In this document: one piece after another, positions 1 to 43,566 of the stretch
Numbering within the stretch: the stretch's first letter is position 1
Layout of the letters: the number at the start of each line of letters is the position of its first letter
Origin: Candidatus Omnitrophota bacterium
Lineage (GTDB): Bacteria; Omnitrophota; Gorgyraeia; Gorgyraeales; Gorgyraeaceae
DNA: 64,000 nucleotides
Direction of reading: 5' to 3'
NCBI GenBank assembly: GCA_043821705.1
Contig: JBDRCN010000045.1
Coordinates: 22,400-86,399, forward strand
Notes under the pieces: model-generated
The model's database searches: none
What the model was told of the DNA's origin: nothing
Seen by the model: the letters and a program-made list of their open reading frames with translations, nothing else
Made by a program: the position numbers and the translations under genes

Positions 1-3000
1 ATCTAACTCTACATTAAATGTACCCATAAAACTGCCGGCTGTATTAAAAACTGAGACTATATATTCTTTAAATATAGTGGAAGGATCCGGAAGAATATCC
101 ACGTTATTAACGTAATCAAGTATTATATCACCCTCTGAAACCTCAAAGTTTGGATCTTTTACTAAGCTTTCCCGAGATAATTTATCATTATCTTTATTCT
201 CCAAAAGCACTTCCTCTAATTTTTCTGCTACTTCCTGATTGCGCTTACCTCTTCCGTGCGGTATATTCCCTATAAAAATAGCACCTCCAAATTTTTCATA
301 ATATGTCCTTATATCCTCCATTTGGTCATTTATAACCTTATTCCCTCCGCAAGAAGCCACCACTACGATCGCTACACTTCTTAGATTCTTTGTATAATTC
401 AGGTAACCTATGCTATTCCCGGTATGTACTCTTGGCATAAATACATCTATAGGGATGCGTTTTTCTTCAGGAACCGGCCTTCCATTATAAGTTATTCCAT
501 TATCAAAATAATACTGAATCGTAGGTACATAATCCGTAAGAACAAAAATCTCTTGGATTCCTCCAACTGTTCTTCTTACAATATACTTTCTTCCTTTTTC
601 TATCTCTACTTTTTCCACATTGTATCTTAAATCTCTATACTTACTAGCGGCGATATCTATCCAAGGTTCCAATGGCCCACGGTCAAATACAATCAGCATC
701 GTCAGCTTCTTATCACTAAATATATCTTCTGTTGGAACCATTTTTTCTTTTATCCCCATATCCTTTATAGCATTAGACATGTCTATAGCATCTTGCGTGA
801 TAAATCTGCCGTCAAACCTTGCAAAAATAGATGCAATCGAAGCTACAGGTATAGGATCGCCTGTTCTTTTATACTCTTTATAGTATTTTTTATATTTAGA
901 AACAATGACCTTTTCTATTTCCCTCTGATAACTATCTGGGACATTATCGCTAAATATAAGATCAAGCGGCCTTTTGAGCCTATTCACATTGGCAGCTATT
1001 TTTTCCATGTCATCTAACGGCCTTTCTATGGGTGAAATAAAATACTCTTCATTCTTATCAAATACTTCTACGAAATGGCCATAGTCCAACAAGCTCATAA
1101 GAAAATCATAAGAGTATGCCCTATTTGGATCAATAGTATTATCTTGGAAAAAGCCCTGATTATCTTTTATGTGTTTTTCGTATACTGCTTCAATGGTTGT
1201 TGGGTAAAGGTGGTCTTTGCCTAGCGCCATTAAATAATACGCAGAATTATTGCTAAGATTTTTTACAAAGGTTTCTCTTATGTTATCGCTTTCATGCTCA
1301 GTTAATGTAAACTGCCTGACATGTAAAACATTCATCCATATAGATATCTTTTCTAAAACCTTTCTTAAATCAATTTCTTTAATATCCTGGGCGTTTTTAG
1401 TGAATTCATTTAGTCTTACAGCAATCTCTTTACCAAGCTGGGCTTCATTTCTGCACTTTTTTAAATCAATACCCAATGTTGCTATTAAATAGTACATATC
1501 AGGAAACGTAAAACGTTCTAACTGAGAGCCCATATAAGACTGTAGTTGGATATTATCAATATCAGTTAAAGTTAAATTGCTGTATTTTACTATCAGGTAA
1601 TGGCCTTTCGTAGGGAAGGACTTTACGTCTTTAAAAAACTCTGGATTGGTCTTATAAAAATCTACTATTAAATTCGATAAATAGTGTTGTGAACGCCTTA
1701 GATCTACTATGGTTTCATCCCCTAAAGTAGCTATACAAGCCTTAAATATATATTTTTTATCTTCTTCTAGTAATCCTTGAATATTATTAATAGATTTCAC
1801 CCTGTGAAATGCAATAACTGATCCATAATCACCTTTTTTAATGTTTGATATTGCTGCCCTGACAAAATCTTCGGCTAAATCATCCTTCTTTAACTCTAAT
1901 GCATATATAATTCCAGATGAATGATCAGGATCATATTTAAAAAGATCTATAGTAGCATTCACAATTATTTCTTTTACTTCTTTATTTAATTCCATATTTT
2001 GTCTTTTAAACTTCTGCAGCACCTCTTTCAATTTAGACAAACTTTTTATATTAGCTATAATGGATTTAAAAACAACTATCTTTTCTTTCTGAGATATTTC
2101 GATATTAGACAAATTTAGGATCAAAAGAGCTGTTTCAGGATCTTTATTATTACATAAGCCCACAACAGTCTTTGTAACCATATTCTTAGTCCTAGAGTCG
2201 AACCCGCCTGATTGAATAGTCTCATTTTCAAAAAGGGCTATTATAGCTTTTGTATCTCCAGTTTTACTTATACCTCTTATGATTTTATTCTTTTCCTCTG
2301 ATGTTATATCTCCTAGATCTATATCAGGCAATATTCCATATATCCAGTAGGATCCCTCAGTAGTCTCTTTCGAAGTATTCAATATATCTATAAAGGTAAA
2401 TAGCAGATCTATTTTTTCTTCTGGGCCAAGTTCATTATAAATCCGCTTCAAGATAAGAAATACGCCTTTTGTTGCTTTATCCGTAGATGTGCTCTTTAAA
2501 AAACGCATAGAAACTGAATAAAGCCTCTTTCTAAGAGGTTCCGGCATTGTGCCTAAATCATATTTTGCGTTAATAGACGATAATGCTAATTCATAAGTTC
2601 CATTAGTTAAATTAGGGGCCTCTAGGATCTCTAGCATAGATAAAACTATTTTTTCTCTATTTGATTTTATATGAGCAATATTCTGCATAATTTTATCAAA
2701 CACGTCTTCATTTAATCCTTCATCACCCTGCCGTACACTAGACAAGGCTGTTAGAATATCTGCATCAAGATTCTCAGAAGCATTTGTTATACGAACATAT
2801 TTTCTTATCTGACTTATGGTATAAAGCTTTCTATTGTCGATCTTCGGATTATTTAACGCAGCTCTAAGATTGGATATAAGATCTCCTTTCATCTGGTTAG
2901 TAATCATATGTTTACTAGCTCCGTAGAAAATCTCTCGCAGGGCAACTATTAAAACACTTCCCAGTGCAGCATACTGAATACTAGAAATATTTGTATTTTC

Positions 3001-6000
3001 AAGGCCCTTGATCATAGTTGATATCATATCCGTATCTATTATTTTCTTATTTTCAATTAGGCTATTTATAAGAAGATTGCCTGCTGTCTTATAGAAATCA
3101 TCGCTTCTTCTTCTATCGCTAGCTAATTCATTTACTATAGCTTTTATCGCGACTTTGTTGTTCTTCAGATTGTCTCTACCAGTAATTTTATTTCCGGTAA
3201 CTATTGCTACGACGCCTACGGTGAGATTTCTGTTAATATCCTCTAAGATAACAACTGTTTGTACGTTACCACGGTCTTCAATAATGCAATTTTTGCCTTC
3301 TTTTAGAATTATTTCTTCTCCAGTTTTACTATCTTTAAGTTCTATTATCTCAGTTTCAATATCAACTGCTCCGTCATTAAGATTTGCTGTAGCATACCCT
3401 ATCACTCCAGAAACAATATAATTCCCAAGCTCATCATCTATTTGAGGCTGTGTTTCGTCAGGGATTAGGGAGCCAGTGTCTTTTTCTTCATCTAGTTCAT
3501 TAAGTTTTTCTTCTATCTCTATCTTTTTCTTCTTAAAAAATTCTTTAGCCGCATCTGAGGATTCATTATCATCAATAGCTTCATTTATTATCTCAAGAGC
3601 TTTATTGTAATTCTCTTTTGTTTCTTCGCTACCAATCTTATTTAGTTTCTCCAGATATTTAGCTCTATGTTTCAATTGTTCTTTAAATACTTCTATAAAG
3701 ACTTTTCCTTTTTCTTCAATTTTACTAATAGCCTCTCTAGTCTCTTCATTGTATAGATCCTTTAATTCTTCAAATTCTTCATGGCCTTCCTGTATTAATA
3801 GATATTCATAACCTAGATCCTTTTGATATAAGCTAAATCCAAAAGCAACTACTTTATTAGTCTTATCTGTTGCAACATAAAAAACACTCTTCTCTCTAAT
3901 GATGTAGTTTACGCCACCACCCTTTTCATCTATCAAATATACCTCTGGGTCACTTAATGGAGCATAACCATCTTCTTCAGAATAAAAATATGCACTATTA
4001 TCTACTCCAACTTTATCCATATCCCATGAAAAGAGATTATCGCTACAATAACGGAATAATCCAAAAAGCGCAGTATAGCTTTCAATTTTTCTATCACCAT
4101 ATAGCCAATGATGATCACCTTTTTCATCTTTTAATGGACTTGATTCTATCAGAACAGGTCCTTTTTCTAATATTTTATCTAATTTTTTCTTTAGAAGTCT
4201 TTCTTCTGGTAATGTTTTGACTCTTTTTATCATCTCGCCTTTAGGCTGCTGTAATTTTTCAATGTCCTCTTTTGTTATTTCTTTATCCAATAATTTTTCT
4301 ACCAACTCTTTGCTTGTGTAATCTTCAACCGGTTTTCCTTCCATAACAGGAACTATCGTATTGTAATATTTTGGATAGTTGACAGGATCTCTGCCTTGCA
4401 AATATAGAATATCTTTAAACTGTTCCAGAGGCAATTTTTTAATATTCTCAGCGCCATCAAGTCCTATGGAATCATAATAAGTGACCTCATTTGTCTCTTT
4501 GCTAAACGATGTGATATGGACTGAATGAGGTCCATGGTTATCAATTATCAGTATCATGCCGTATTTTTGGATATTCGTGTCCGCAAGCCTCTCCTCAAGG
4601 GTCACCCTTCCCTTTTCCTTGTATGAAAGGGTTTCTTCCATTTCGAACCTTACATCACTGCCGTAAAGCTCTGCCTGCTGGTTCATATAATCCCTCAGCT
4701 TATCAAAGGGAAATAAACTTTGATCGGAAGAATAAGTTATATTTGCTGCATAAATATCAATATCTCCATATGTACTTAGCCCGTTGTTTTTTTCAACATC
4801 CTTTAAAATACCAATCTTATCGAACATTGAGAGTGCAGCAAATATTGTGCAAGGTAAAGACAGGTCAAAAGGACCTTGCGCATTATAATGAATATTTGGA
4901 TATTTTGTATCATTTGACGGTTCCGCCTCAGTGGGTGGATCGTATACTGTCGGCCTTGTTTGTTCATCTCCTTTGGTCTGGTGTTGGACTAGGATATTAT
5001 TGATTGCTTCTCCTAGGCGAACTATCTTCACATCATATTTCCCATCCTCATTAAGCGTAAGTTCTAGCCTGTCTTCTTTCTTAAGAGGTTCTTTTTCTCC
5101 TGGTATATAGACTCTGTCTTTTCCGATTTTATATACTAATTTTCCATTTATAGATTCTTTATCTAGTTTTATTACATCATCTCCTATTATAAGCTCTCTG
5201 GCTTCTTCGTTAGAAGCAAGGCTAAGGACTTTTATACCCTTATCTACAGTGCCACTCATATCAGCCAGGCTTATGCCAGAGATAGTGGCAGTGAGATCGT
5301 TAGAAGGCGCAGTAAATGCTATTTTATATATTGACTCTTTATCCGGGGTGATCTCTATGCCATTTCTTGCTTCAAATACCACTTCACCATCTTCATCTAA
5401 TATGTCTTTTTTGACTGTAATAGTCCTCTTGCCTGTCATCTTATCCCACGTAATCTCAGAATTTGATTCATTGAAGCTAACAGTAATGCCATTCATTCTT
5501 AAATTTATCTCTTTATCTGAGATCATCTTCACTTCTCCCACGCCTCCACCACCAAATGTTACAGGCATATAGCCTTCATCAGGAACAGTTTCAGGTGTAT
5601 AATTATCACCTATAGGCACGCCAGACATAATCTCAGTTCCTAACGACGAAGGAGATTGGATGTTTTGATCTAATTCAGGCCTAGACATTATTGACTCAGT
5701 GTCGCGTTGTTCAGGTTCTTTGCTTTCTGCAATACTGCCTTTTCTAACAACTTCTATACTAAACTTCCCATCACCTTTAGGAGTTAGTTCTAACTGATTT
5801 CCACGATAAACCTTGACTTGTCCTAATATATTTATTCCTTCTTCTGGGATGTTTTTGAAGGTAAGTATTATAGACCCATCAGCTTGCGGCTCGCTTAGAT
5901 CTACCTTATCTCCTATAATAAATGCCTGGGCTTCGCCATTAGAAAGGGTAAAGGTAATCTCTTTTACTCCAAAGAAACTCTCTACATCATCTATATCAGC

Positions 6001-9000
6001 AAGGCTTATACCTGATATAGTAGCTGTAATGCCAGTAGGGTAGGAATGTTGAGGAAATGGGAAGGTTTGGCCTGAGTCGGGTTCTGGGATTATTAGACCA
6101 GTGTCGGAGTTTTTCTTAGGCTGGCCTTCTTTTTTATCTGTACTTACAGGGATAAGCTTCATCTTCTTTATATTAATAGTGCAATCTGGTTCATTTAATA
6201 ATATTTCATTTTCCCCATACCTTTTTCCTGTGTACATTTTTATCTTAGTGACACTTGTCAAATCTAAGTTTGAAGGCATATATATCTTTTTAATGCCATC
6301 TGTAGATACATCTATTTTAAAAGACGAGTCAAATATTTCCTTTCCATCAGACGTTACGAAGCTAATAGCAATTTCTTTAAGCCTGCCTTTGGATTTAAAG
6401 TTAGTGCCTGACGGTGTTTTTCTCACATCCAATTGCAATTCACACCCAGTAAGGTCTAAAGGCTTATCAAAAACAAAATCAACATAATTATACTCGCTAT
6501 ATATTCCGCCTGCTGAATAATATTGGCTTACTCCATCAATAAATATATTCATCCTGCCTACTGCTGATACGATAGATCCTATATTTCTCATTGTTGCTTT
6601 TTCAATAAAGATAAGTGGCGCTACATTTTTAATGGTTGATTCACATCTTAAAAGCCATTTATCCTTTTTATCCTTACATTCGTAACTCGCAATCAACGTA
6701 TATCTAAAATCTTTTCCTCCAGCTTTTGCGCGTGTTTTATTAACTAAATCTAGCACACTCTTTTTCATCATAGGATGCGGCAGCTTCTTAACTTGTTCTC
6801 CAATTTCTTTAAGAGAGCCTGTAAATATTTTCTGCTCAGGAATAATAGAGCATTTACTATAAAATCTCCAGGAATAAAAAGTATCTGGATGTTTTTCTAA
6901 CTCTTTCTTTGCTCGCAATGTCAAATCATACTTAAGATTTTCTCTTGAAAATGCAAAACTAATAGAAACGTATCTAAAAAAGTAGTGTCGCAACAATGGG
7001 CTTTTTATTTTCTTAGCCTGCTCTTTTATCTCGGTAATAGTGCCTATAAATCTCTCTTCAGGAATCTCTAACTCATTTAACCATCCTCTTTGCCTTTTCT
7101 TAAAATCCATACCAATTTCTTCTGGTGCTTCTGCTATTTTATATCCTGCATTTCTTAGCTCAAATTTAACCCAACCTTCAGACATACCATAGCTACCATC
7201 ACGACCACTACTCTCTTGAATATTGTTAGGACAACCTTTATCCAGTGTCATGATGCCAAATTCATATTTAATGCCTTCTTCTGCATTGTAAAATAGGCGT
7301 TTACTAACTTTATAATAATCTAAATATTCTTTAGCATATTGTCGCATTCTTGAATCCTCTAATGCCTCTATTTTTACCCTAAGTTCTGCGAGCGTACCTG
7401 TAAGTTTCAGCGGCTTAGGTGGCAATTCTTTCATCTCTACCTGCCAAGATTCTCCTGGCATCTCCTTTACAAATTTCACGGTTAAAATATACTCTACACC
7501 TTCCTGCAGTTTTGGTAGATTTTTCTCAAATTCTTCTTTAGCTACTTTTTTGATTTCTGCATCTTCTGTATTGCCTATTTCATGTTTAATCTCAGAATAT
7601 GAACCTCGAAACTCTGTTTCTATATCTTTTGAACTGCTTAATAAATCCTTTGCCAGTATTTGTTCAGTAAAAATCTCTATCGGGTCCTCTTCTAGCTCCT
7701 CTTCTAGCTCCATTGATATATCTTTAACTAATTTATCTTTCTGCAGTTGCGTGATTGATTTTATTTCTTCCGGCTCTAAAACCCCTTTTCTTGTTTTGCC
7801 TTTACCTTTGCTGGGAAAAAGGCTTATTTTCTCACCAGAGCTATATTCTCGCCCGTCAAGAGTTATGTCTTTTAAGAAAGTAACGATCCTTTCTCCATCT
7901 TCATCTCTATTGCCTATATCTACATCAATACCATTATAGAGCTTTACCTTTGTCATATCTTCTAGCTCTCTTAAAAGGTAAAAAGGTTTTTTATTTTTTA
8001 AGACTGTATTATATATATATTTAATTGGCTCTGGAGGTAAGTATGAATGCTTTGGTTCTTCTTCAGGTTCTGGGGCAGCGTGTTTTTCTAACTTTCTATC
8101 TTTACTTTCTTCTAAAATCTTCTGGGGTTTTTGTGGTTCTTCTTTTTTCTCAGAATCTCCATCGATAATATTATTCCAATAATTATGGTCCATCCAGATC
8201 TTGCCGTTTTCATCCATTGACCACTTGGCGTAATATTCATATCCATCATCATATAACTCCTCTAACTCTTCTTCTGTATAGAGACGCGTAAATCTATATG
8301 TCTCTAAATCTAACTTACAGCTTGTCATTCTTTCTACCTTTGCAAGCAATACTTTACTCTTTTTGCATTTTTCCAAAATTTCCGAAAATAGAGGATATGA
8401 AAAATTGAATAAAGATTCTGCAATAGCTGCTTGATCTTCTTTAAAACTACCTTGTCCATGCCCTCCTGCACAATCCTCAAGCTCTAGGCTCTCCGGCCAG
8501 CTAGAATCATCATTTGTCCATATATAAGGTATATAATCGTCATTAAAGTCCATAATGTGGAAAAGTTCGTGATGAAAATACTGATAATTGGAAAGAGTCA
8601 TTGTTGTAGGCCAAAAACGTGACTTAATATAATTTGTTACTTCTTGATTACTACTATGCCCTACATATTTAGGATTTATTGCTATCTTCTTAAAATTTGA
8701 ATTTTTTAAGAAAATCTTTGGATATCTAAGAAGCTGCTCTTTTACAGCATGAACCTTTTGGTATAAATATTCTAATCTTATCTCATCTCTTCCAGGTGTA
8801 GTACGATCTGTCTTAAGCCATTCATCTATTGCCTCAAAATCTAATTCATCAGAAATACCCAATAGAGAAACTTCTATCCCGAGATTTTCAATATCAAGTA
8901 CCTGAAGATAAATCTCTTCTTTAAAGTAATTCAATCTAGCCTTTTCTTCCTTGTCGCTACCTCTAATCACTTCTACGCTATACTTCCCATCATCTTTAAG

Positions 9001-12000
9001 GGTTAATTTTAGCTGATTTTCAGGATAGAACGTGCCTAAACCTAATATATTTACCCCATTTTCTCTGAAGGTAACTATTATTGTCCCATCAGCTTGCGGC
9101 TCGCTCACATCTACCTTATCTCCTATAATAAATGCCTGGGCTTCGTTGTTATAGGTAAAGGTAATCTCTTTTACTCCAAAGAAACTCTCTACATCATCTA
9201 TATCAGCAAGGCTTATACCTGATATTTCAGCTTCGACGGATGTTAGATCAGTAGAAGGTAAATCTATTCTATCAGCGTCTTTTTCAGGCATTAGTGAGCC
9301 AGTGTCAGGCTGCTCTTTTTTCACAAACTCTTTAAGCTGCCAGATAAGTTTGATAAGTGTCTTCTGCGTTAGACCTTCATCCGAAGAGGCTGCCTTATCA
9401 ATCTTGTCTTGTATAAATCCAAATGCCTCTAAACCAAATGCCTTTATAAATAACTCTCTATTAGTCCAATCATCGCTTAAAATTTCTAACGGATTTGGAG
9501 AAATAAGCATCAGCATTGAAATATAAGCTGGAATATAAACACCTTTATAAACCTTAGAAATTCTATATGGCGAATATCTAATAAGATCTTTAGTCTCATA
9601 ATATTTTGCATCATCTATCTTGCTCTTTTTGACCCAGACCTTTTTTCCTTTTTTCCCATTGACTACTTTATTGGCCGATATATAGCCCTTAGACCACTTG
9701 GCTTTTACAGCTGTATTTGGTACAAGGCTATATTTTTTACCATCAAAAACAATCGTATAATATCTGCTAAGATCAACTTTAATGGGAGATAATGGTTGAG
9801 TAAAATCTTTGTTAGCTGTACGATATTTTACTTTTTTCTCTTTGGCAAACTTTGTATTATCAATACTTTTCTGTATTCTATATTCCTCAAATCTTCTTTT
9901 GATGTCTTTAGGACTAGGTAGTTTACCTTTCATTAATTTTCTTAATTCTTTTAACTCTTTCCTTTCGCTTCCTTTAATTTCTCTATATTCTAAGAGTTTA
10001 TCTATCTTTTTAAGTGCTTCTTGCTTTATTGGGTATCTTTTTCCTAATAACGTATCAAATATACCGAGATCATTGATTTCTTTTATTAAGCCGTTTATCT
10101 TTGCTTTTAATATAGCAATCTCGGCTTTTGTCTTATATTTTTTCAAGTCTTTTTTCTCATCTGCGCTTATCGTTTTATTATTCAACCTTTCTTCTATTAT
10201 CTTAGATGCCCTCTTATACGCATTAGCTGCCTCTTTATAATCCAGACCTGTAGCGTTTAACTTTGCTTCGTTATAACATTTATTAATTTCTTCAATTACT
10301 ATATTTCTTTCTATAATATCTTTTTCTTTTTTCAATTTTACAGCTTCATCTATAGTTATATTTTTGCTATTTAATCTGCGTTTTATTCTCTCAAGAGTTT
10401 TCCTATACGCATCGACTAAGGTTACGGATGAAGTATCCTTTGAAGTCAAATAAGATTTAATGTCTTCGTAATGAGTTTCTGAACTTAGAGAAGACCTCCA
10501 TTCCATACTAATTCCGTTAAACTCACCATTGTCACCTCTTGCAGATATGATACTAAGATCATATTCAGCATCTATAATATTAAGGTGTTTGTAGAAATGT
10601 TCAAAAAATAAGGCTCGTATAAGTGGGCTTTTTATCTTTTTTGCTTTAGCTTTAATTTCTGAGAAGGTCCCAGTAAGCTCTATTTTGTCTGGAATATTTG
10701 TTTCGTTAATCCATCTCAGCTGTGTATATTTAAATCCTATATCACATGGCTCCGTAGGTTCTAAGATCATCGACGGGCTACCATGACTATTAAGCCATTG
10801 GACTTTGCTCCTTTCCCATTCTTCATTACTATACCAAGGGGTAAAATCAGGGCCTGGAGAATCTATTGCTTTTCCTTTTAGATCTAGATTTAATCCTATC
10901 AATATGCCAATAGTGTATGTTACGCCTGCTTCAAGTAGTGGTCTAATCTCTTTAAGACAGTGATCCAATGTTTCCTCAGCATACTCTTTCACTCTCGGGT
11001 CTTGTATATTCTCTATCTTGACCCTAAGTTCGGAAAGTGTACCTGTTAACTTCAATGTCTGCGGCGGGATTTCTTTCATCTCTACTTGCCATTCTTCCCC
11101 CTTCATAGTTTTAGTTAATTTTATATCTAGAACATACTCTACGCCCTTTTGTAGCTTGGGTAGCTTCTTATTAAATACCTTTTCAGCTTCCTTTCTCATT
11201 CTTGCATCTTTTATATTATTTATTTTATCTTTAATACTGGAATAGGAGCCTTGAAATCTCCTATTTATACTTCTTACCTTATATCTTACACCATCTTCTG
11301 AACGGATAAGTTCTAACTGAGTACCAGTTGGGAAGAATTCTTTGCCTTGAGGGGTATCTATATAGGTCTCTTTTGTAAATTCTACTGCGATGATTTCCTC
11401 TCCATCCGGGTTATCAACTTCTTTTATGCAATTTGGATATGATTTACCATCTACCTCAATTCCTGTAGAGCCATATATAGTTAATCCATCAACTGATGCT
11501 AGATCTGTAAAGAAGGTGATGTTTATAAGAGGAAGGATTTGTTTAGTGTCAATGTGAGGGTGAGTTTCATCAGGCATTATCGACCCACTGTCGGATTCTT
11601 TAGATTCTTCTTCTCTTAGTAATCTCTTATATGCCTTTATAAACATAACTCCTAAGTTCTTATGAGGTGCTATATAATTACCAAAGGCTCCATTGTGGCC
11701 GAGTCTATCTTCCGCCTTTTCCCAGAACGCTGGCCATGATATATCCTTACCTTTAAGTATCTCAGTATTTAATAGATATAAAAGCGGATCATTTACATAC
11801 ATTGTCCCTGTTCCTTTAGTAGATATAATATGGGCTTGGGGAGTTTTATCTAATATATCTGATATCTCATTATAACCACCGCAGGATCTAAGGACAACTA
11901 GCTCTGCTTCTGGGTTTATTCTCTTAATAGTCTTATTAACATGATAACTATGCCCCATATGGACTTCTATATGGACCTTTTTCCCTTTTAAAGCCTTATC

Positions 12001-15000
12001 TATAGCAGCCTGCCCTTTATCTTCGAATTCTGGTTTATTGACATATAGTTCAATCCTTTTACCATTAGTAGGTCTTGATATTATAAGGGTATAGCTATCT
12101 TTATCTTTAATCTGCCAAGCTTTTTTACCTTTATATTGATTAAGGAGACTATTGTAAGAGGCCTTGCCATCTTCATCATTATAAGAATAGAATCTCTGGA
12201 TGCTCACTTCGTCTTCATTAAATAGGTTCTTAGTAGGTAGTTTTGTAATATCCTGCAGTTTATATTTTTTTGACATCTTTTTAAACCAATCAGTGCTAAG
12301 TACTGCCTTTTCGCTGAAGAGGCCTGATAATAAGCCGTAAATAACTCTTGCCTCTTTATTGTCTTTCTTGAGGACTTTATGGTATTCTTCCTTTATGGTT
12401 TCTTGGAGGACTTTTAAGACTTCTTTATCCTGTATCATGCTAAAGGTATCAGCTATAATTACAGCCTGTGATAGTAAATCTTTATCATCGGACTTAATCC
12501 TTACAAATCGTTTAAGTAAGTGTATCTTTTCATCCTTTGTTACTGTATTCAAGAATTCATTCAATCTATTGTAGCTGGCACATAGTTTAATCATCACTCT
12601 AAACTTATTGTAATCTACCTTTTTAAACAAAGTCTTAGCAGTCAATCCTTCTTTTTTCATTTTATTAAGCATTCTTGTAAATAGGCCATTAAAGGTGGAA
12701 GTAAAGACTTCGTTTTCGCCATAGACCATAAGAGTATAGAGTGTTTCGGAATCAAAAGTTTCTACTGATCTAAAACGTATTGTGTCGGATGAGTCATGTA
12801 GATAGTTTATGTCCCATATCGCTCTAAGACAAATCATTTTTAGGCCATTGGTTATAGAAAAACTTCCTAAATAATCTGGCTGTCTTTTAATTTCAATAAT
12901 ATTTTTAAGTAATAGACTAGGGTCTTTGGCTATATTATAGGCCTTTTCAAAAGACAGGTTATTCTTTACTATCTTATCTAAAAGTAATGTCGTCCAAAGT
13001 GCATCTTCCTGAGATTTCAACGGTACATTTTTAACACCCCAATCATATAGCCCGCACAATTTTTTAACTATAGGATTTTTACTGCGTTTCAATACTTCAA
13101 TAAAATCTGAATTTCTGGTTAAGGTTGCAAATATAAAATCGGTCAGCTGTCCTCTATCGTTTCCTCCAAAAATTAACTTCGACCCTCCATCAATAGCTTC
13201 AAAAGGAGCAAAAATAACCTTGGATTCAAGAAATTCTAGTCCATAAGGTTGATCAATAAATATCTTATAGTGTCTAGATAAATTCTCATTAAAAACATAA
13301 ATAAGATCTAGTATTTCAGGAGCCCAAGACTTGCTTATCCATTTTGCTAAAAATGGTTTTACTATGAAGGTATCGCCTACTATTTTCCCTTCTATGAGCA
13401 TAACTTTAAATATTTCCTTTGCCCAAGGTTTATCAATATATTTATCCATATCTTCCATTGCCCTCTTAGGATCATCTCTAGCTAACTCCATATAATAAGA
13501 TTTTTCTTTTTCAGTATCACGCTCGCTTAAAGATATTCCAGCAGAAGAAGGGCTTAATATGCCTTCGGTAGATGGACTGACAATAAAATCAAAATCTTCA
13601 TCTACAGGAATATCCGACCTGCCTGTAATATCTTTTGTCTTTTGAGGCTCTTTTTCCTTGGCACTACCTCTATCTATTTTATATTTCATCTCTTTTGAAA
13701 CATAAACCTGATATTTTAATTCTGAAATCTCATATGGTGATTTAGCTATATCTTGTTTTTTGATAAGATCTGTCGCGCTATCTATACTAGATTTCTTTAT
13801 AAGTACTCTTTCCTTTATTTTTCCATTAACCATTCTTACACCAAGGACATAAAGGCTTTTATCCTCACTCCATCCATCTAATTCATATTCAACATCATCT
13901 TTATGAATAAGGCTGTGTTTTTGGCCATCATATACAATAATATAGTCTTTGCTGAGGTCTGATTTTATTAGTTCAGTTACCTTATATCCTATTCCATCTT
14001 CTTGAAGTACGAGTCCTAATTGGGTGTATTTGGGGAAAAATTCAGCTTCTATGGTGGTGTCTTTTGTAAATTCTACTATTGTAATTCTACCCTCTGCTCC
14101 TATTCTTGTTTTAACCTCTTTTATACAGTTTGGATATGGTTTACCATCTACCTCAATACCTGTATAGCTATCTATAGGAGTAAGCTTATCAATGGATGCA
14201 AGGTCTACGAAGGGGATGATGTTGGAGAAGGGGAAGATTTGCTCAGTTTCAGGTTGAGGCTGAATGATCCCATCAGGCACCAGTGAGCCACTGTCAGGTT
14301 CTTTTTCAGGTTCTGGGGTTTTCTTTTCTTGTATTCTTTTTAAAACTTCCAATAGTTTAGTATTTGTAGGGGCGCCTTCACTGTCCAATCCCGACCTTGT
14401 CCAAAAATCAATCATATCTCCTAAATTCCCTACTCCTAACACATTTCTATCTTTATCTAAAAATGTTATAATGGGAGTCATGGCTTTCTTAGCACCAAAA
14501 ATAAAAGGCACTAAAGCTGTAACTAAATTTGTACTTTCGGAAGTAAACTCCTCTCCATCAGAAGATGTTACCTTTATACCATCTTTCGTAACTTGATAGA
14601 AAAACTCCTGGCCACTTCCTTCTGGTATAATATACCCTTCGGAAATTATTTCAGAATCTTCTTCTATGCTGGGTTTATCTATAACGTTATAATCATCAAT
14701 TCTATGTAAATAACTAACATTAATATTATCGGTTGAAATGAGATTATTTAATAAAGATCCTCCTATTAAACCTCCTAATATCTTACCTAATTTCAAAGAA
14801 ATGCCTGCTTCAATACGATCAAGAGTATGGCCATCTCCGTCCGGCTGCCAAAATTCCCCGATTTTCATAAAATTGAAATTTGCTTCACCGTAATCAGTAT
14901 TTAAAGATATGCCTCCACCCCATTGGTACTGATCCTCGGGATCTATGGAATAATTAAGCCCGCTTGATGTAAATGGTGTACGCCCCCATGCATTAGCTTT

Positions 15001-18000
15001 TAGCAAAATATCTTTACTTAAACTAAAATCTATATTCATAGCACCAACACCAAACCACTTTCTGTAGAAACGACTGACATTACCGCTTAATCCAATGCTA
15101 ATATCATCTGCAATTTCAAAATCTGCATTTAGTCCTATCTTGAATTCAGATAAATATCCTGCAGGATCATCAATTATACTAGGATTTATAAATCCATTTA
15201 ACAATGCATAACCCGATATGAAAAGATTATCAATGTAATCCTGCTTAAAACTTTTATAGATCCCAACAGATGGCTTGGCATACCAACTACTTGTCCCTAG
15301 ACTTGGGTTTATAAAGATATTTGTACTAATGCCGGCTCCATAGCTCATATCCTTAATGCCAAACAAACCTGGATAGGCACGATAAGCATCTAACATCATT
15401 CCTAGATAACTATCGCTTCTCAAAGAACTATATTCGTTAGTTTTTATCAAATCATCCACCCAGCTACGATAATTTAATGGTACATAACCCCATAGACTTA
15501 AACCCATATCAGTAGCATATTCACCTTTTTTGTCCATTGTTGATGCTGAACTTGCCATAAACATATTGCTTTCATGGGTTGATAATTGAAAGGTATTAGA
15601 GGATATCTTAATCGGCGACCAGCTATCGCCCAAAGGATTTACAATGCCCACATCTATCTTTGGATATAGATGTTCATAATCAAAGAAACCTTTAATATTA
15701 ATTTCATTGATAAAAGGCTTTTTCTCTGGTTCTACATCTTTGTTTTCCTCAAATATCTTCTGGGGCTTTTGTGGTTCTTCTTTTTTCTCAGAATCTCCAT
15801 GGATAATATTATTCCAATAATTATGGTCCATCCATATTTTGCCCTCTTCATCCATTGACCACTTGGCGTAATATTCATATCCATCATCATATAACTCCTC
15901 TAACTCCTCCTCTGTATAGAGACGCGTAAATCTATATGTCTCTAAATCTAACTTACAGCTTGTAATTCTCTCTACTTTTGCAAGCAATATAGAGCTTTCC
16001 CGACATCTAGTTAAAAGTTCAAAAAAGCTATGTCTTCCAAAAAACGAGTCTGCAATAGTAGCCTGATCTTCTCTAATATTTATCTGGCCATGATCACAAT
16101 CGTAATCTTTAGAACCTAAACTTTCCGGCCAAGAAGAATCATCGTTAGACCATAAATGAAACGGCAGATAATCATCTTTAGAATCTGCGTGATGAAATAT
16201 TTCATGATGGATGCTTGGGGTGCTGGTAATAAATATTCTTGAAAACCATTTTCCAAGACTAAAATTGTATTTATCTGTTTTCATGTTATAAATATAAGGA
16301 TTAACAACTATTTTTACAGTGATGCAATTTTTTAAAAAAGCCTCCGGATATACTGAAAGGGCCTCTTTTATTTCTAAAAGCTTCCTCTCTAATGTTTCCA
16401 GTTTATACCTTCCACTTATAAGCCATCTATTAGAAGAGCCTCTCAAGAAAGTTACTAGCGCATCAAAAAATCTTGGTATATCAACTTCAAATCCAAATTT
16501 ACTACTGATATCGCGCACATGGGAATTAATCTTTTTCTTAATGATTAATACTATATCAGCATCTTCCTGTAACCTTTTGCTTGCAAACTCTATAGCCATG
16601 CTATTCTTTTCAACAGCTTTTGACACAAATTCCTTATCGCCTCTGAACTCCATATGATAAATAATGCTTGGCGCTTGAACGACTATATCTAGAATAAACT
16701 CTTTATCATTTTTCAATCTATCGCTTGCAAACCGTATTGTAAAAGTATTTTTCACAGCCGCAGCAAAAACTATATTCTTATCATCCTTAAAACTATCGCT
16801 TACATATTCTAAGACTTTGGGGTTTTTTTCTATAGCCTTTAATACAAATTTTTTATTATCTATAAATAGAGAACCTACAATAGCTTTTTGGTCAAACTCT
16901 ATCTTGTCAAGCAATTCTTCCCAAGTTACTTTAAAGGTTACTCCATCTTCTGAAATGAGTTCTAATTGGGTGTATTTGGGGAAAAATTCAGCTTCTATGG
17001 TGGTGTCTTTTGTAAATTCTATTACTGTAATTCTACCCTCTGCTCCTATTCTTGTTTTAACCTCTTTTATGCAGTTTGGATATGGTTTACCATCTACCTC
17101 AATACCTGTAGAGCCATATCTAGTTAATTCATCAACTGATGCTAGATCTGTAAAGAGGGTGATGTTTGTAAGAGGGAGGATTTGTTTAGTGTCAATGTGA
17201 GGCTGAGTTTCATCAGGGATTAGTGAGCCAGCGTCTTTTGGTACTATTGATTTCTCTACAGGTACTAATGTTTTTAAAGGTGTTAGTTTGATGTGTGTTA
17301 TATAAATTTGGCCTATTCCTTTATTTGACAATTTCTGGCTTCCATACTTTTTACCACTATAAAAACGTATTTCCTTAACACTTGTCATATCCAAATCATT
17401 AGGTATATATATCTTTTTCCAGCCATCAGCGGATACATTTATTACAAAGGAAGGATGAAATATTTCTTGCCCATCAGATGTTATAAAGCTTATGCCGATT
17501 TCATTGAGCCTTTTATCAAGCTTGTAATGGAAAGAATCAGGCACTTCTTTTACGTATAATTCTAACTTACATCCAGTAAAATCAGCTGGCAAAGATGGGA
17601 AGCTTGTCGAAATATCACAACATACAAAATTATCATCTTTATACCTAGCAAGATCGCTCATATAATGTCCATACTTGCTGCTTTTGTACATTCCGTACTC
17701 CTCCCCAATGAATACGTTCATATTGCCATTTGTACTTATAGCTATTTCTACATCAAAACCGAATGAACGCGCAAGAACTTTCCTCCCGGGATAAGTTTCT
17801 AAGAAACGAATACTCTTCATTGTTTTCTTAAAAGCCATCTTATATATTATCCCTTTTATTTTTTTACCTTTTTTCTCAAATTCAGGAATTACACTAAGTT
17901 TATACTCTTTTACGTTCTGTTTTTTGCCTTCTTTGCGCTCCTTATCTATTAATTCTAAAGCAGCATCTTTCATGCTGGAATATTTAATTTTTTGAACTTG

Positions 18001-21000
18001 AGCAGAAATTCTATCTAATGTGCCATTGAAGTTTATTAGTTCAGGTAATTGAGGAACAATATCGTAGGTTAAACTCCATATTGGTACAACTGTATGTTCA
18101 AACTTTATCTTCCTTATCTTGACAGTAAGAGTATGTATAATATTATCATCATCCGAAGCTACAAAGATGGATCTGTCTTTAATAAGATCTAGCGTCATCT
18201 TTCTTAATAGTGGGCTTTTTATTGAGCGTGCATTTCTTCTTATTCTAGATATCGTACCTGAACGTGTAGCTGTTGCTGACTCGGCTTCATCTATCCAGGC
18301 ATATAATCTCTTTTTATAATCAAATACTATTTCCTGAGGCGTAGAAGCTATTTTATCACCAAAAGTTTGCATGGCACAGTTTACACCAACTTCGCCTTCA
18401 TCCAACAAGAAAGGCACTGTATAACTTATATCCTCATCTGTTACTACAATTCCAAAAGAATATTTTACTCCTTCTTCAAGGCCTATTTTATCTCCCATAC
18501 TAAGCGCATTATTTACAAAATAGTCCAATTTTGCTTTAGCATATTGTTTCATCCTAGGGTCTTCTATATTGTCAATTTGTGTTTTAAGCTCGGAAAGAGT
18601 TCCTGTAAAGCTTATCCTATCAGGCGGCAGTTCTTTCATCTCTACTTGCCAGTATTCCCCTTTCATCTCCTTTACAAATTTCACGCTTAAAATATACTCT
18701 ACGCCCTTTTGTAGTTTAGATAAATTCTTTTCAAACTTCTCTTTGGCAAGTTTCTTTATCTCTGGATCTTTTATGTTAACTATTTCACTATCTATCATAT
18801 GAGACGAGCCCTGAAAGCTCATACCTATACTCTTTACTCTATATCCTGCTCCATCTTCTGAAAGGATAAGTTCTAACTGGGTGCCTGCTTGGAAGACTTC
18901 TCTGCCTTTTGAGGTGTCTATAGTGGTGTCTTTTGTAAATTCTATTACCTTAATCTCTTCTCCATTTGGACCTGCTCTTGTTTCGATTTCTTTTATACAG
19001 TTTGGATATGGTTTACCATCTACCTCAATACCTGTAGAGCCATATATAGTTAATTCATCAACTGATGCTAGATCTGTAAAGAGTCTGATGTTTGTAAGAG
19101 GAAAGAACTGTTCAATGTCAATAATAGGGTGGGTTGGTTCATCTCGAGGCATTATCGACCCACTGTCGGATTCTTTAGGTTCTGGTGTGGTTGTTCCTTT
19201 TTTCTTTTTACTACTAATAATATCTTGATAAATATAGATTGGAACATATACTCCTTCATATAATTCAGAAATCTTAAAGTATGTATCTTCTAGATCTTTC
19301 TTTCTTAGGTACTTAACTGCCGTATCTATACTTGTTTTTTTCACCCATATCGTTCTTTTCTTCTTTCCATTAACGACCTCTCTAACTTTGACATATTTTT
19401 TGCGGTCTATATTTTTGATATTCTTACGCCATATAATATCCTTATTTGCAACAAGACTGTATTTTTTTCCATCAAAAACAATTGTAAAATTCTTGCTAAG
19501 GTCAACTTTATTAATGGGTTCTACTTTGCTCTTAAAAGAATACTCATCTTTCTCTTTCTTAATTTGAACATCTATAGTCAACACCCATCTTAAATCATGT
19601 TTCATCCAATATCTATCGATGGTAGATTCTGCTTCTTTTCGTAATCTTGGATTTTTTAGTTTTTTAACCTTGGCTTCAATCTCTGAAAGTGTACCAGTAA
19701 TTTTTATTGACTCTGGGTATTTCTCGTTAATTTCACCCTTAATACCCTCTCTTGTTGTCCCTACATATAAGGTATACTCTATATCATCTTTAATAAATTT
19801 TGATTCCTTTAATAGTTCTCGGGCAAACTCTTTCAATGCAGTATTTTTTATATTTGCTATTGAAGTTTTTAGTTCTAGGACTGTGCCCATAATTACTATA
19901 GACTCTGCATCTTTTTCTTCAATCATTGATGCCTTGGTATAATCAGTGCCTATCTTCTGCGATTCTGTCTCCTTTATCTTCAATGTAAAATTATAAACCT
20001 TGTCTGATTTAAGGCCTCTGGCATTAATTAATATCTCATGCAAATATTTCTTTACTCTAGGATCTCCTAATTCCTCTATGTCTTTTTTAAATTCCCGAGG
20101 ATACCCTTGATATATAGAGAAATGAGTAAATCTTAAAGGAGGAAATTCTTTTATTTTCCCCTCATATATAGACTCTTTTTCGGTTTCTCTAACATCTATG
20201 GTCAAAATATAAGATACATTTCTCCTCAGTCCTGGAGTATCATTTAATATACGCTCAGCACGTCTTTTCAAATCAGTATCTTTAACATTACGAATTTTAG
20301 TCTTAATCTCTGAAACATCACCTTCGATTCTGAGGAATCCAGGAGATAGCTTTCTAATATCAATCGATGTTGTATATTCACTTCCTATATTTTGGGGTGT
20401 ACTTTCTTCTACATCAAAATAAAGTATATATTTTATATTTTCTTTTTTTGTCAAATCCTTTGCTCTATCTAAAGCTCCCGCTAGATATTCTTTCAAGTCC
20501 TCATCACTTAGTCTGTCAATCTTTCTCCTGATCTCTGAAAAAGTACCGCTAACTTCCATATTTGTTAAATCAATAGATAAATACGCAGTCTTACCTTTAT
20601 AGAGAGAATCTGTTGAAGTTAAGTCTCTAATTATAATTTTATCTTTGTTAGATCCTTTCGAGATCTCCTTAAACTGGACTGTTGGCCTACCGTTAGAATA
20701 AGTTATGCTCAAAACATAGTTCTCTCTTTCACTCCCCGGTGTGTTGTTTTTTAAATACCTTTTAATTCTCGGGTCTTCTATTTTTTCTATCTTATATTTA
20801 AGTTCAGAAAGCGTACCAGTAAGTTTAAGTGGCTTAGGCGGCAGTTCTTTCATCTCTACTTGCCAGTATTCCCCTGGCATCTCCTTTACAAATTTCACGG
20901 TTAAGATATACTCTACACCTTCCTGTAGTTTCGGGAGATTCCTTTCAAATTCCTCTTGAGCAAGTTTTCTAGTTTCAGGATTTTTTGTATTGTTTATTTC

Positions 21001-24000
21001 ATGTTCAATCTTAGAATATGAACCTCGAAACTCTGCTTCTATAGGCTTTGAACGATTTGATAAATCCTTCGTTAGCGTTTGTCCAGTAGAAATTACTGGT
21101 ATATCTTGTATCTTTTTTGGTTTTAGTTTAGCAGTTAATATATCTTTAACTAATTCATCTTCCTGCGGTTGTATGATTGATTCTATTTCCTCTAGCTCTA
21201 AAGTCCCTTCTATTGCCTTGCCTTTACCTTTACTGGGAAAAAGACTTATTTTCTCACCAGAGCTGTATTCTCGTCCGTCAAGGGTTATGTCTTTTAAGAA
21301 AGCAACGATCCTTTCTCCATCTTCATCTCTATTGCCTATATCTACATCAATACCATTATAGAGCTTTACCCTTGTCGTATCTTCTAGCTCTCTTAAAAGG
21401 TAAAAAGGTTTTTTATTTTTTAAGACTGTATTATATACATATTTAATTGGCTCTGGAGGCAGGTATGAACGTCTTGGTTTCTTTAACTTTTTCACAGTAG
21501 AAACAGTTCTTGTCTCCTCCATATCTAACGCCCTTTTTACTTCATAACTTTTCCCATCTTTTTTAAGAGTTAGTATTAACTGATCTCCAGAATAAAACTG
21601 CTCCTGTCCTAATATATTTATCCCTTCTTCTGGGATGTTTTTGAAGGTAACTATTATTGTCCCATCAGCTTGCGGCTCGCTTAGATCTACCTTATCTCCT
21701 ATAATAAATACCTGTGCTTCGTTGTTATACGTAAAGGTAATCTCTTTTACTCCAAAGAAACTCTCTACATCATCTATAGCAGTAATTTCAACTGTGAAGC
21801 CAGGAATAAGAGGTTTTATTTCATCAGGCATCAGTGAACCAGAGTCGGATTCTTCTTCAATAATATCTGTTGGCACAAAAATAATCTTATCCTTCTCATA
21901 TTTAACCTTTACATATTGATTTCTCTCTTTTACAAATCCTATCTCGTTTTCTTCTGGCCACAGAGTCTTTTTATTTATCTTAGCTCCTTCCTTAAATGAC
22001 ACTGCCCAATCTTCATCGATATCCACCTCGGGTTGATTCCATACGTATAGCTTAAATTCCTCACCTTTTCTTACTATACCAGAAGTATTGAGCTTGTTTT
22101 TCTCTTTCTCAATCAATCCTGCTAGAATTATAGCCTTTTTAGCCATAGACTCCATTCCGCTTCTAGGGCCTTCTCCGTAATATGCAAAATTAAAGGCTTT
22201 CTTATAATAAATAGCAGAGTTCTTTAAACATGTAAGAGGATCTAAATCTTCTGGTAGATTTAATATCTTTCCAGCAGAAAAGACGTAACCCATGCTCTCT
22301 GGATCAAGCGGCTGTTTTACAGTCCTATCTCCTAAATAGAGATATATATCTCCTAATTCACTAGATGCTGTTATAAATCCTGGATCCTTCTCTAATGCCT
22401 TTTTGAATAAATCTATTGTTTCTAAAATATAATCGGGTTCCAGATTCTCTCCGTAAATTATATTATGTTTATAAAGTTCTGCCAGATTGGCATAGCCCCA
22501 GACAGAGCCTGGATCTTTTTCAATGGCCTTTTTTAAAAAATCTATTTTCTCTGATTCTTTTTTTAAGCCTACTGATGTGCTTCTTGCATATAAAATATAG
22601 GAAGATAACAGAGCTTCAGGTGTACCTATTCTAATCTTTCTATGTAGTTTCTTTTTAAAATGACTCTCTTTTAACTGCAGATATTGCCCAGGTTCAATTT
22701 TTTTGTATAGCCCGCCAGAACCTTCTAACGGAAAAGGCTCGCTTATGCCTACTCTAGGATTTGATATATCAACTATTATAGATTTGTTATCAGAAAGTTT
22801 GACTAAACTAGCTACATGATATACACCTTCTTGTACTCCACAGGACCATGTAACCTCAATAGGATCTATAGATAAGCCTGCCAATCTACCTAAGATTACA
22901 AAAAGCTGTGTAGAACCTACGCAATTAGCTGAACCAATATAGCCTTTGTCAGCATGTTCTTCATTGAAGACCTTGGTAAGAAGAGCTGGGTAATCACCTC
23001 TATCACTCTTAACTGCATTTTTTATAATTTTCGATAAACTATTAATCCTTTCTAATCTTGGCATATCTTTTATTTTTTCTAACTCATAATTATTATAAAA
23101 ACTAGAAATTTGCTCTACTATTTCCGATTGTTCTTCCAAAGAATATCCTAATTCTTCAATAGCCCCAGAAATTACTTTTTCTATATTAGTTTCAGGTTGA
23201 TTTTCTTCTCCATAACCACCTAAATCCCCCTTGGACCCTTCATTAAGGTCTAATTTCAATCCTTCACCCTTAAGCGCTGCTCTATTGTCTACATCTACAA
23301 TTAGAGATTTAATATATTCACTATCCTCTATAGATAAAAGAAAAATAGGTAATTTAATCCCCTCTTCTTCCAGGTGTTTCTTTATTGCTTCCTTCTGACG
23401 AGAAGGTAACGCTACTATAGCTACTTCATTAGGAGCAAGACGGCTAACAAATTCTTCCTCAAGAAACTCTTCTAGCTCGCCATTCTTCAGTGAATAAAAG
23501 CCTCCTTGAATAAAATGTCTACCATCGAATAAAACCGGAACTTGAATAGGAGCTTTCTGTGAATCTGTTTTGCGAGATTCCTGTTGACTAACTTTTATTA
23601 TATTCCCATCTTTATCAAATGTTACGTCAAAACTTATGTTTGCTAAAAGCATGGCAGTCCCAAATAAAGCCCCTCCTCCACCGCCAAAGGTAAATGTAAA
23701 GGTGTCTTCGCTGAGTCTAGCGGCATCATCTTCAGGTGCATCAATGCTGCTTGTATCCTTAGATTTAGGAGCAGATATTTCTTCAGTAGAAGTCTTGGTT
23801 TTTGGAGCTTGTTTGGAAGGTTCTGGTTCAACATCTATTACAAGCATACCAGTATCATTGTCTTTCTCGATACTAATATCTATCTTTTCTTTTCGAGCTA
23901 CTGAGTTAAATCTCTTTTTAAAATATTTTAATTTATCCTCATCCTTATTAAAATTATGTACGAGTAATATCCTTCCTTTAGGTTTTACTATTCGAAGAAT

Positions 24001-30849: not shown

Positions 30850-31425
30850 TTATTTAGATAGGGTTATTGTTTTTTGGGATTGGTACTTTCCTTTGCGGTC
30901 AGAGTAGGTAGTGTCACACTCTTCCTGGGACTCAAAGAATATGATCTGGGCTATGCCTTCATTAGCATATATCTTCACCTGGGAGGCTCCTGTATTGGAG
31001 ATATCCATCGTTAAGTACCCCTCCCAGCCTGGTTCTAGGGGAGTGACATTGACTATGACACCACACCTGGCATAAGTGCTCTTACCAGTACAGAGCGCTA
31101 GTACGTTCTTAGGCATCTTAAAGTACTCTAATGACCTGGCTAATACAAATGAATTCGGGGGAATAATGCAATATTCCCCCGAATGATCTTCAAATAGATC
31201 CTTATTTATATTCTTAGGATCAAGTATGTCTTCTTTCTTGCCTCTAAACAATTTAAACTCATTTGAGAGTCTTATGTCATATCCGAAGCTAGAAGGTCCA
31301 TAAGATATCTTACCATCTCTTACTTGCTTCATCTGGAATGGCTTTATAATATCTTCTTCCAAAGCCATTTTTTTTATCCAGGTATCTGGTTTTATTGACA
31401 TAGTTTTAACACTTTGAATATCCAC
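30850..31425 (-). CDS. dcd: dCTP deaminase
   Basis: [14 protein letters not shown]...[36 protein letters not shown]. The true start is probably the internal Met MSIKPDTW at about 31401, giving an ATGA overlap with nrdJ. Confidence 0.8.
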
Positions 31426-39100: not shown

Positions 39101-39136
39101 CTTGTGTCATGTGTCCTGTGACTTGCAACTTGAATA

Positions 39137-41013: not shown

Positions 41014-41031
41014 GGTTCACGAATCACGATT
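40955..41031. repeat. Tandem heptanucleotide repeat array arranged as an imperfect palindrome (CGTAATY x4 ... RATCACG x4), batA-batB spacer
   Basis: cgtaatc cgtaatt cgtaatc cgtaatt cgtgatg cgcaatc ggttcac gcatcac ggttcac gaatcac. Confidence 0.8.
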
Positions 41032-42560: not shown

Positions 42561-42609
42561 ATTTAGATACTTACTTCTAATACCTTCTTAGTGCTTTTTA
42601 ACCCACTCT

Positions 42610-43542: not shown

Positions 43543-43566
43543 GAATTACGAATTACGCATTACGAA
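43493..43566. repeat. Tandem heptanucleotide repeat array in two opposed blocks (ACCGTGA x5 / TACGAAT x5), DUF58-moxR spacer
   Basis: accgtga accgtga tgcgtga accgtga ttcgcga tctgt tacgaat cacgaat tacgaat tacgcat tacgaat. Confidence 0.8.

Follow-up and report, generated by a model that had tools for sequence, protein, structure and literature searches.

A module of a giant Omnitrophota protein belongs to a widespread family of candidate exported thiol enzymes with no detectable membership in the CHAT/caspase proteases

Peptidases of clan CD, including the caspase (PF00656) and CHAT (PF12770) families, carry a His and then a Cys, each after one of two consecutive parallel hydrophobic strands in an alpha/beta/alpha sandwich; the residues near the Cys are small, and CHAT-type domains are also found within very large proteins. 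The spacing between His and Cys in the clan is about 33-56 amino acids (aa). The flavodoxin-like 2-1-3-4-5 strand order is also that of the caspase core, in which the His follows core strand 3 and the Cys follows core strand 4. A Cys/His domain is likewise present in the MARTX and large clostridial toxins (Peptidase_C80), where it sits in a giant exported multi-module protein and cuts the linkers between the modules. Among the Omnitrophota, long proteins combine a PF08241 methyltransferase with a PF02518 domain, a pairing termed 'Module 1' (10.64898/2026.06.07.730766). Cleavage of giant bacterial proteins is an open question, and domains of the C39 and S8 peptidases have been suggested to carry it out (10.1101/2023.11.21.568195). 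The present analysis concerns a window, the whole stretch of DNA analysed, of 64,000 nucleotides from a Candidatus Omnitrophota bacterium (contig JBDRCN010000045.1). On its minus strand, at 1..30555, lies the open reading frame (ORF) of a giant protein with two His...Cys motifs, here called copy 1 and copy 2.

Copy 1 was found to be a member of a widespread family that appears, from its sequence, to have no Pfam, NCBIfam or PDB counterpart. It is read here as a candidate exported His/Cys thiol enzyme, at a probability of roughly one half, with the catalysis and the nature of the substrate both putative. The initial annotation had described the two motifs as CHAT/caspase-like dyads, and re-checked translations place both of them where it had put them, on the minus strand. 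In copy 1 they are HIEVHMGHSYH (aa 6212-6222, window 11973-11941) and LVVLRSCGGYN (aa 6236-6246, window 11901-11869), and in copy 2 RVHTGNSIGY (aa 10059-10068, window 432-403) and IVVVASCGGNK (aa 10080-10090, window 369-337). The gap between His and Cys, given there as about 30 aa, is roughly right and measures somewhat shorter, at 23-26 aa in copy 1 (C6242 counted from H6219 or H6216) and 25 aa in copy 2 (C10086 counted from H10061). Cys makes up 48 of the 10,202 residues of the giant (0.47%) and His 1.15%; SCGG is observed twice against 0.012 expected, both times after a hydrophobic strand. The pattern VH.G.S-x(12-30)-[VILMA]3-x(0-1)-SCGG, set after the data had been seen, occurs twice in the giant and in 0 of 2000 shuffles. 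The match between the two motif pairs is more than chance.

The copy-1 module comprises about 695 aa (aa ~5640-6334, window 11605..13689, minus strand), as delimited by a BLAST comparison of the giant with 161 family proteins and by conservation along the full length. Similarity to stand-alone exported proteins of 700-1000 aa is collinear along the whole module, indicating that the giant carries an entire family protein embedded as one module. The C-terminal alpha/beta domain of copy 1 (aa 6111-6334, window 11605..12276, minus strand) was delimited from homologues, the family hidden Markov model (HMM) and an AlphaFold2 model. A search with aa 6111-6332 retrieved 15 proteins with 37-54% identity (E 8e-72 to 9e-34), all of them uninformatively named and devoid of Pfam domains. 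The family profile was then compared with 1.84 billion cluster representatives and retrieved 942 proteins at E<=1e-3, representatives of clusters at 50% identity, with 602 of them at E<=1e-30. In this search, the typical member carries a domain of about 300 residues at the extreme C-terminus of a protein of 700-1000 aa. Copy 1 itself matches the family HMM with 417 bits (E 1.7e-129, HMM positions 2-305).

Two further features of the module lie upstream of the alpha/beta domain. A second stretch strongly conserved in the family, at window ~12660-12830 (aa ~5930-5985), has many conserved polar residues and reads 'N.LH...D..RF ... LY.LMVYGE.E.FTS.FNG.F.R'. Short 'D.PYA.E' repeats are found further upstream, at aa ~5720-5800.

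A scan of one genome per species gave at least 596 genomes with a relative of the family. Many hosts are Patescibacteria (Paceibacterota, Moraniibacteriota, Peribacteria, Gracilibacteria and Saccharibacteria), many others are Chitinophagales, including the cultured Thermoflavifilum thermophilum and Niastella, and one is an Omnitrophota metagenome-assembled genome (MAG). ORF calling at the family loci gave stand-alone genes of ~690-1070 aa. In Chitinophagales the genes often form tandem paralogue pairs, in which the gene of a ~1000-1200 aa protein immediately precedes, on the same strand, that of a ~700-720 aa protein, and in many cases the stop codon of the first overlaps the start codon of the second (loci L017, L018, L020, L022, L024, L027, L030, L046, L048, L052, L056, L058 and L060). 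At locus L038, in the Omnitrophota MAG (JBAZUE010000002.1, 12,660 bases), the module lies inside a stop-free ORF that crosses the whole locus and encodes at least 4,219 aa; this ORF probably corresponds to P0111, a protein of 7,391 aa. The closest relative of the copy-1 module, P0047, is 53% identical over aa 5665-6360 and is the product of a stand-alone 769-aa gene with a signal peptide, adjoining a toxin-antitoxin pair. At the N-terminus, many stand-alone members have either a typical Sec signal peptide or one hydrophobic anchor, and the family is therefore predicted to be exported or anchored outside the cytoplasm. One member from the search of cluster representatives, P0107, has Trp where the family has invariant Gly (HRWHSYH, LWSCGWYNN, TKWTGT); this would fit a genome with UGA as a Gly codon (code 25; Gracilibacteria/Absconditabacteria) that had been translated with a table in which UGA is Trp.

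The family core was read from an alignment of 156 diverse family sequences, on which all conservation figures are based. It consists of V-H-R-G-H-S-Y-H ... L-G-S-C-G-G-Y-N, followed by P-x-A-H-I-I-S-T-K-G-x-G-T-x-x-V-N-D-P ... W..F-W ... F..Y-x-P-P-x-K-N. C6242, G6243, G6147, G6267, Y6311 and P6314 are 100% conserved, and H6219, D6144, D6146, N6190 and N6272 are 99% conserved. The first motif of the site, D-x-D-G after strand 1, reads D-E-D-G in the giant (aa 6144-6147, window 12166..12177, minus strand). The second has the consensus H-R-G-H-S and reads H-M-G-H-S (aa 6216-6220, window 11947..11961, minus strand), with H6216 at 95%, G6218 at 99% and S6220 at 97%. The third has the consensus G-S-C-G-G and reads R-S-C-G-G (aa 6240-6244, window 11875..11889, minus strand). 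Eight of the sequences have Tyr, Leu or Gln at position 6216 instead of His, while Cys6242 is replaced in none.

In copy 1 of the giant, Met stands in place of the family Arg of H-R-G-H-S, and R6240 takes the place of R6217. R6217 is absent from only four sequences of the alignment, three of which have an Arg at position 6240, a site that is Gly in 152 sequences; no sequence has both Args. The three with the exchanged Arg are the giant, P0047 and P0109, and the motif H-[MVC]-G-H-S / R-S-C-G-G is found in exactly these 3 of 156. This move of the Arg between the two loops indicates that the His and Cys loops are in contact and that the Arg is needed. The arrangement H-M-G-H-S / R-S-C-G-G in the giant suggests a functional variant rather than a decayed copy. 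Copy 1 keeps all other invariant positions of the family, apart from this compensated R/G exchange and F6141S.

To place these residues in a fold, an AlphaFold2 model of copy 1 was built from the alignment and reached a predicted local distance difference test score (pLDDT) of 93.4 and a predicted template modelling score (pTM) of 0.90. The order of elements is b-a-b-b-b-a-b(His)-a-b(Cys)-a-b-a, followed by further helices. H6216 is the last residue of strand 103-106 (model numbering) and H6219 starts the next helix, while C6242 lies two residues past strand 126-129, in the turn, and two residues ahead of the next helix (134-144). The description of a His after a beta-strand and a Cys in the turn between a strand and SCGG is structurally correct for copy 1. 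The family motifs gather at the C-terminal ends of strands, with D-x-D-G at strand 1, A-N-x-P at strand 4, H-R-G-H-S at strand 5, G-S-C-G-G at strand 6 and S-T-K-G-x-G-T..V-N-D at strand 7. In the model, these conserved polar residues would mark the usual active-site edge of an alpha/beta enzyme.

The proposed mechanism is that of a thiol-dependent hydrolase or transferase. Cys6242 would act as the nucleophile in a Gly-rich strand-to-helix turn that resembles the G-x-Nu-x-G elbow, with the Gly-rich turn and the N-terminus of the helix stabilising an anion, as in an anion hole. His6219, on the neighbouring loop, would serve as the general base. A single Arg, at 6217 in most members and at 6240 in the giant, may hold an anionic group of a cell-envelope substrate together with Lys6264, and the aspartates of D-x-D-G may orient the His or bind a cation. 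Among described enzymes, the nucleophile-elbow thiol hydrolases (such as dienelactone hydrolase and the class I glutamine amidotransferases, with G-x-C-x-G) offer a likeness, in that the G-S-C-G-G of the family centres its Cys in a sharp turn from strand to helix. They differ in that their His follows the Cys, whereas the conserved His of the family precedes it, and the family gives no HMM or fold match to them.

Copy 2 has a core at aa 10059-10139 (window 190..432, minus strand), reading RVHTGNS ... IVVVASCGG ... AIFIGN, this being the part matched by the family profile; a putative whole domain begins near aa 9969 (window ~700). In a direct BLAST comparison the two copies are weakly similar (36% identity over 39 residues, E ~0.1). 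Against the 156-sequence HMM, copy 2 scores 9.2 bits over 39 residues, a value reached by 0 of 300 shuffles (maximum 4.3), and it is the best non-self match among 51 windows of the giant (E ~1e-3). The hhalign alignment is longer, at 74 columns, and takes in the strands of the His and the Cys together with the strand and helix that come next (41% probability, E 2.8e-4). Its score is 33.9, whereas none of 37 other natural windows of the giant exceeds 19.7. The initial annotation's treatment of the two copies as akin is thus probable. Copy 2 keeps the first His, the Gly and the Ser (VH-G-S) as well as S-C-G-G; it lacks the second His (H6219 is Asn), the Arg at either of its positions, K6264, and the D-x-D-G, W..FW and F..Y..P..N motifs. 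It is quite probably a strongly diverged, degenerate duplicate of the copy-1 core, and probably inactive or repurposed.

The converse, that copy 2 is unrelated and that VH.G.S...SCGG is shared by convergence or chance, is the less likely explanation. The short HMM match at 9 bits and the loss of most family invariants speak for it, and copy 2 offers no homologues in which conservation of its His and Cys could be checked: the last 262 and the last 1,143 visible residues of the giant have no homologue among 5.8 billion proteins, and a metagenome scan for copy 2 gave no relative. Against it stand the rarity of SCGG in the giant and the extension of the hhalign match into the next strand and helix, which makes copy 2 a clear outlier among 38 windows. 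The AlphaFold2 model from the single sequence (pLDDT 34) is unusable as a structure; at this low confidence, its identical strand and helix order is weak evidence for relatedness. A BLAST hint of a third copy near aa 3230-3450 was rejected, this being a ~65-aa repeat region without a His or Cys motif. The repeat run itself extends over window ~20047-21009 (aa ~3200-3520) and is built of ~65-aa units of the form '...SE[IL]K.KI....D...K.[YR]L.....PG......Y[IV]L.I...'.

Several points weigh against the thiol-enzyme reading of copy 1. The copy in the giant deviates at three positions conserved at 97% or more, F6141S, R6217M and G6240R, of which two are accounted for by the Arg swap. The geometry of the predicted site is derived from secondary structure and one covarying pair. 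Gene neighbourhoods at 80 loci contain housekeeping neighbours only, with no conserved partner, and give no clue to function. Neither a known family nor a solved structure gives one: Pfam, NCBIfam and PADLOC scans of both copies returned nothing relevant, and sequence-profile searches of the PDB with two alignments returned nothing, or HigB at E 0.18. The motif strings likewise gave nothing relevant when searched for in the literature. Copy 2 is an orphan with an unusable model, and its homology to copy 1 extends over ~75 aligned residues. Finally, the same His, His, Cys, Asp and Asp residues could bind a metal instead.

This last possibility is the best-surviving alternative for copy 1, and an unlikely one. 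Here the His, His, Cys and Asp would form a metal (Zn) site, catalytic or structural, with no thiol nucleophile. It would suit the H-x-x-H arrangement, the invariant Cys of the neighbouring loop and the pair of Asp residues at 99% conservation, and an exposed free thiol would be unusual in exported proteins such as these. A ligand role for H6216 is hard to reconcile with its replacement by Tyr, Leu or Gln while the Cys is always kept. The Gly-rich turn and the obligatory Arg would also be more in keeping with an anion hole or a substrate site than with a set of metal ligands, and no metalloenzyme is found among the fold matches from Foldseek.

A more doubtful alternative is a nucleotide- or phosphate-binding alpha/beta domain, resembling a G domain or a nucleotidyltransferase, in which the Cys would be secondary. 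It is favoured by the Foldseek searches, in which the best matches in two libraries are G domains (Ras, Ran, MglA and FeoB). Among 350,542 PDB chains the top matches of copy 1 are small GTPases (MglA, RhoA/B, FeoB and GIMAP) together with uridine phosphorylases at TM-scores of 0.23-0.44, and in BFVD they are Ran, Rab and Ras at 0.3-0.46. The Ras-like G domain is thus the best structural match to copy 1 and has a similar order of secondary-structure elements, but the match is weak, the G-domain scores being low (0.3-0.45). The family lacks the Walker A P-loop GxxxxGK[ST], having the consensus F-F-Y-x-D-x-D-G-x-x-S after strand 1, as well as DxxG and NKxD, and hhalign against H-Ras gave 0.19% probability with the motifs not aligned. 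Because the P-loop is missing and the H-Ras comparison is negative, the similarity of copy 1 to G domains is topological only.

In the nucleotidyltransferase version of this alternative, H-x-G-H and I-S-T-K are taken as HIGH and KMSKS/ISTT-type motifs. H-R-G-H does agree with the H-x-G-H signature, and when 23 family members were scanned singly against Pfam-A, one matched CTP_transf_like at E 0.011 and one NTP_transf_4 at E 0.035, both below threshold. About 0.25 matches at E 0.011 would be expected by chance over 23 scans. H-R-G-H also sits after the fifth strand, whereas the signature requires strand 1, and hhalign against TagD gave 0.17% probability with the motifs not aligned. A nucleotide-binding role of either kind would leave the 100% conserved Cys unexplained.

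The initial annotation's own reading, clan-CD-type (CHAT/caspase-like) proteases in a self-processing polyprotein, with cuts that would fall at the D-[ST]-G-S-[LI]-x-P linkers between modules, is as improbable as nucleotide binding. Copy 1 does show the arrangement typical of the clan, a His and then a Cys that each close a hydrophobic strand, on consecutive strands. The family label was nevertheless not borne out by HMM, hhalign or Foldseek comparison. Neither copy matches a clan-CD family (CHAT PF12770 or Peptidase_C14 PF00656) or any other peptidase in Pfam-A at E<=1, the whole giant has no clan-CD family at E<=0.01 against Pfam-A, and the 23 singly scanned relatives gave, at E<=10, no CHAT, C14 or other peptidase and only scattered noise. 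The Peptidase_C80 HMM matched neither the copies nor the whole giant. Comparison of the 156-sequence profile with human caspase-3 gave 0.24% probability over only 20 columns around the Cys strand. In the Foldseek search of the PDB, the copy-1 model retrieved no caspase-like fold in the top 50, with caspase, metacaspase, gingipain, legumain and the toxin cysteine protease domain (CPD) all missing from it.

The differences from clan CD extend to the details of the site. The His-Cys spacing of 23-26 aa in copies 1 and 2 falls short of the clan's roughly 33-56 aa, and the motifs are G-H-S and S-C-G-G in place of H-G and (Q/A)-A-C. The family also has a three-stranded beta-meander before the catalytic half and an additional invariant D-x-D-G, Arg, Lys and Asn. 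The CHAT/caspase assignment is wrong or at least unsupported, and copy 1 is not a detectable member. A very remote kinship with the caspase fold may exist, to judge from the Ras-like matches, which would imply the 2-1-3-4-5 core common to caspases; no measurement made here supports it.

The proteolytic reading also has in its favour the linkers of the giant. Eight linkers of the form D-[STA]-G-[SL]-[ILV]-[IMVL]-P, often followed by D-E-T-x-P-x-I-D, lie on the minus strand at 21826-21846, 19147-19167, 17215-17235, 14275-14295, 11572-11592, 9286-9306, 6085-6105 and 3460-3480, and divide aa ~2900-10202 into modules of ~640-1070 aa. Each linker leads into either of two conserved domains of small size, 'LFTDLASVD.LTIYGSTGIEVDGK.YPNCIKE' or 'ISLADIDDVESFFGVKEITFTYNNEAQ'. 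DSGSLVP (aa 5438-5444, window 14275..14295) lies upstream of the copy-1 module, DSGSIMP (aa 6339-6345, window 11572..11592) lies 5 residues past the end point of the stand-alone homologues, and DTGSLIP (aa 9043-9049, window 3460..3480) opens the last visible module, which holds copy 2. The position of DSGSIMP relative to that end point indicates that the giant is, as far as can be read from its sequence, a concatenation of otherwise independent units. That the linkers are conserved within the giant, with one next to copy 1, and that cleavage of giant proteins is discussed in the literature, would suit self-processing. Long Omnitrophota proteins differ on this point, the peptidases discussed there being C39 and S8 and not the His/Cys domain (10.1101/2023.11.21.568195).

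Copy 1 nevertheless lends the polyprotein idea no support. The great majority of its relatives are exported proteins of 700-1000 aa that stand alone and hold nothing to be processed. None of the 161 family proteins has the linker motif, nor do the other giants that bear the module, L038 and P0111. As the relatives are mostly single-module proteins, polyprotein processing cannot, on this evidence, be the conserved role of copy 1. The comparison with the Peptidase_C80 toxins leads to a similar contrast: the giant shares with them a Cys/His domain in a giant exported multi-module protein with linkers, but theirs cut the linkers between modules, while cleavage at the recurrent linker of the giant is hypothetical, and the copy-1 family has no sequence match to them and is mainly stand-alone. 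Slimmest of all is the chance that the H-R-G-H-S / G-S-C-G-G domain founds a new clan of exported cysteine peptidases, unlike caspases in both fold and motifs, that cuts the eight linkers and releases the ~640-1070 aa modules, in which case the giant gene would be a true bacterial polyprotein.

The host protein occupies a single stop-free frame of 10,202 codons on the minus strand (window 1-30606), which is open at the window start. The first ATG, at 30555, is the likely start and gives at least 10,185 aa, with the C-terminus lying beyond the window start. A hydrophobic segment, KKIISLVLVHTFFFTSVCYPA, follows this ATG and is predicted to be a signal peptide or membrane anchor. In the whole giant, Pfam matches at E<=0.01 comprise only Methyltransf_11, HATPase_c, TPR and DUF4116, all within the first ~4,700 residues. 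With more than 10,000 aa, an N-terminal anchor and both the PF08241 methyltransferase and the PF02518 HATPase_c, the protein resembles the giant multi-enzyme proteins of the Omnitrophota (Archaeovorin-type, 'Module 1'). The same His/Cys module occurs within the Omnitrophota ORF L038, but this module is all that the two giants have in common.

The genes downstream of the giant, on the same strand, are of kinds ordinary for a bacterial chromosome. A ribonucleotide reductase large subunit of 1,605 aa (window 31406-36223, minus strand) is split by an intein sequence, recognised by Intein_splicing and Hint_2 matches and LAGLIDADG homing-endonuclease domains. Window 36405-44604 (minus strand) holds a complete Bat-type aerotolerance cluster with TPR/SH3, BatD, TPR, two VWA/BatA, DUF58 and a MoxR AAA_3 ATPase. 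After the Bat cluster lies a UvrD/PD-(D/E)XK helicase-nuclease of UvrD/AddA type (46118-49177).

The results turn a guess at the level of a motif into a defined, testable domain family of about 940 clusters at 50% identity, which spans the reduced genomes of Patescibacteria, cultured Chitinophagales and giant proteins of the Omnitrophota type. Its site has a clear signature, in which the Cys is invariant, the His conserved and the Arg obligatory though mobile. At least one module of the giant is a copy of an exported protein that is independent elsewhere, here fused into the chain and connected to its neighbours through a recurrent linker cassette, and this bears on whether giant proteins act whole or cut into pieces. 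The cultured hosts, Thermoflavifilum and Niastella, make the family experimentally accessible. As a conserved exported enzyme across these lineages, it would be a reasonable candidate for cell-envelope chemistry.

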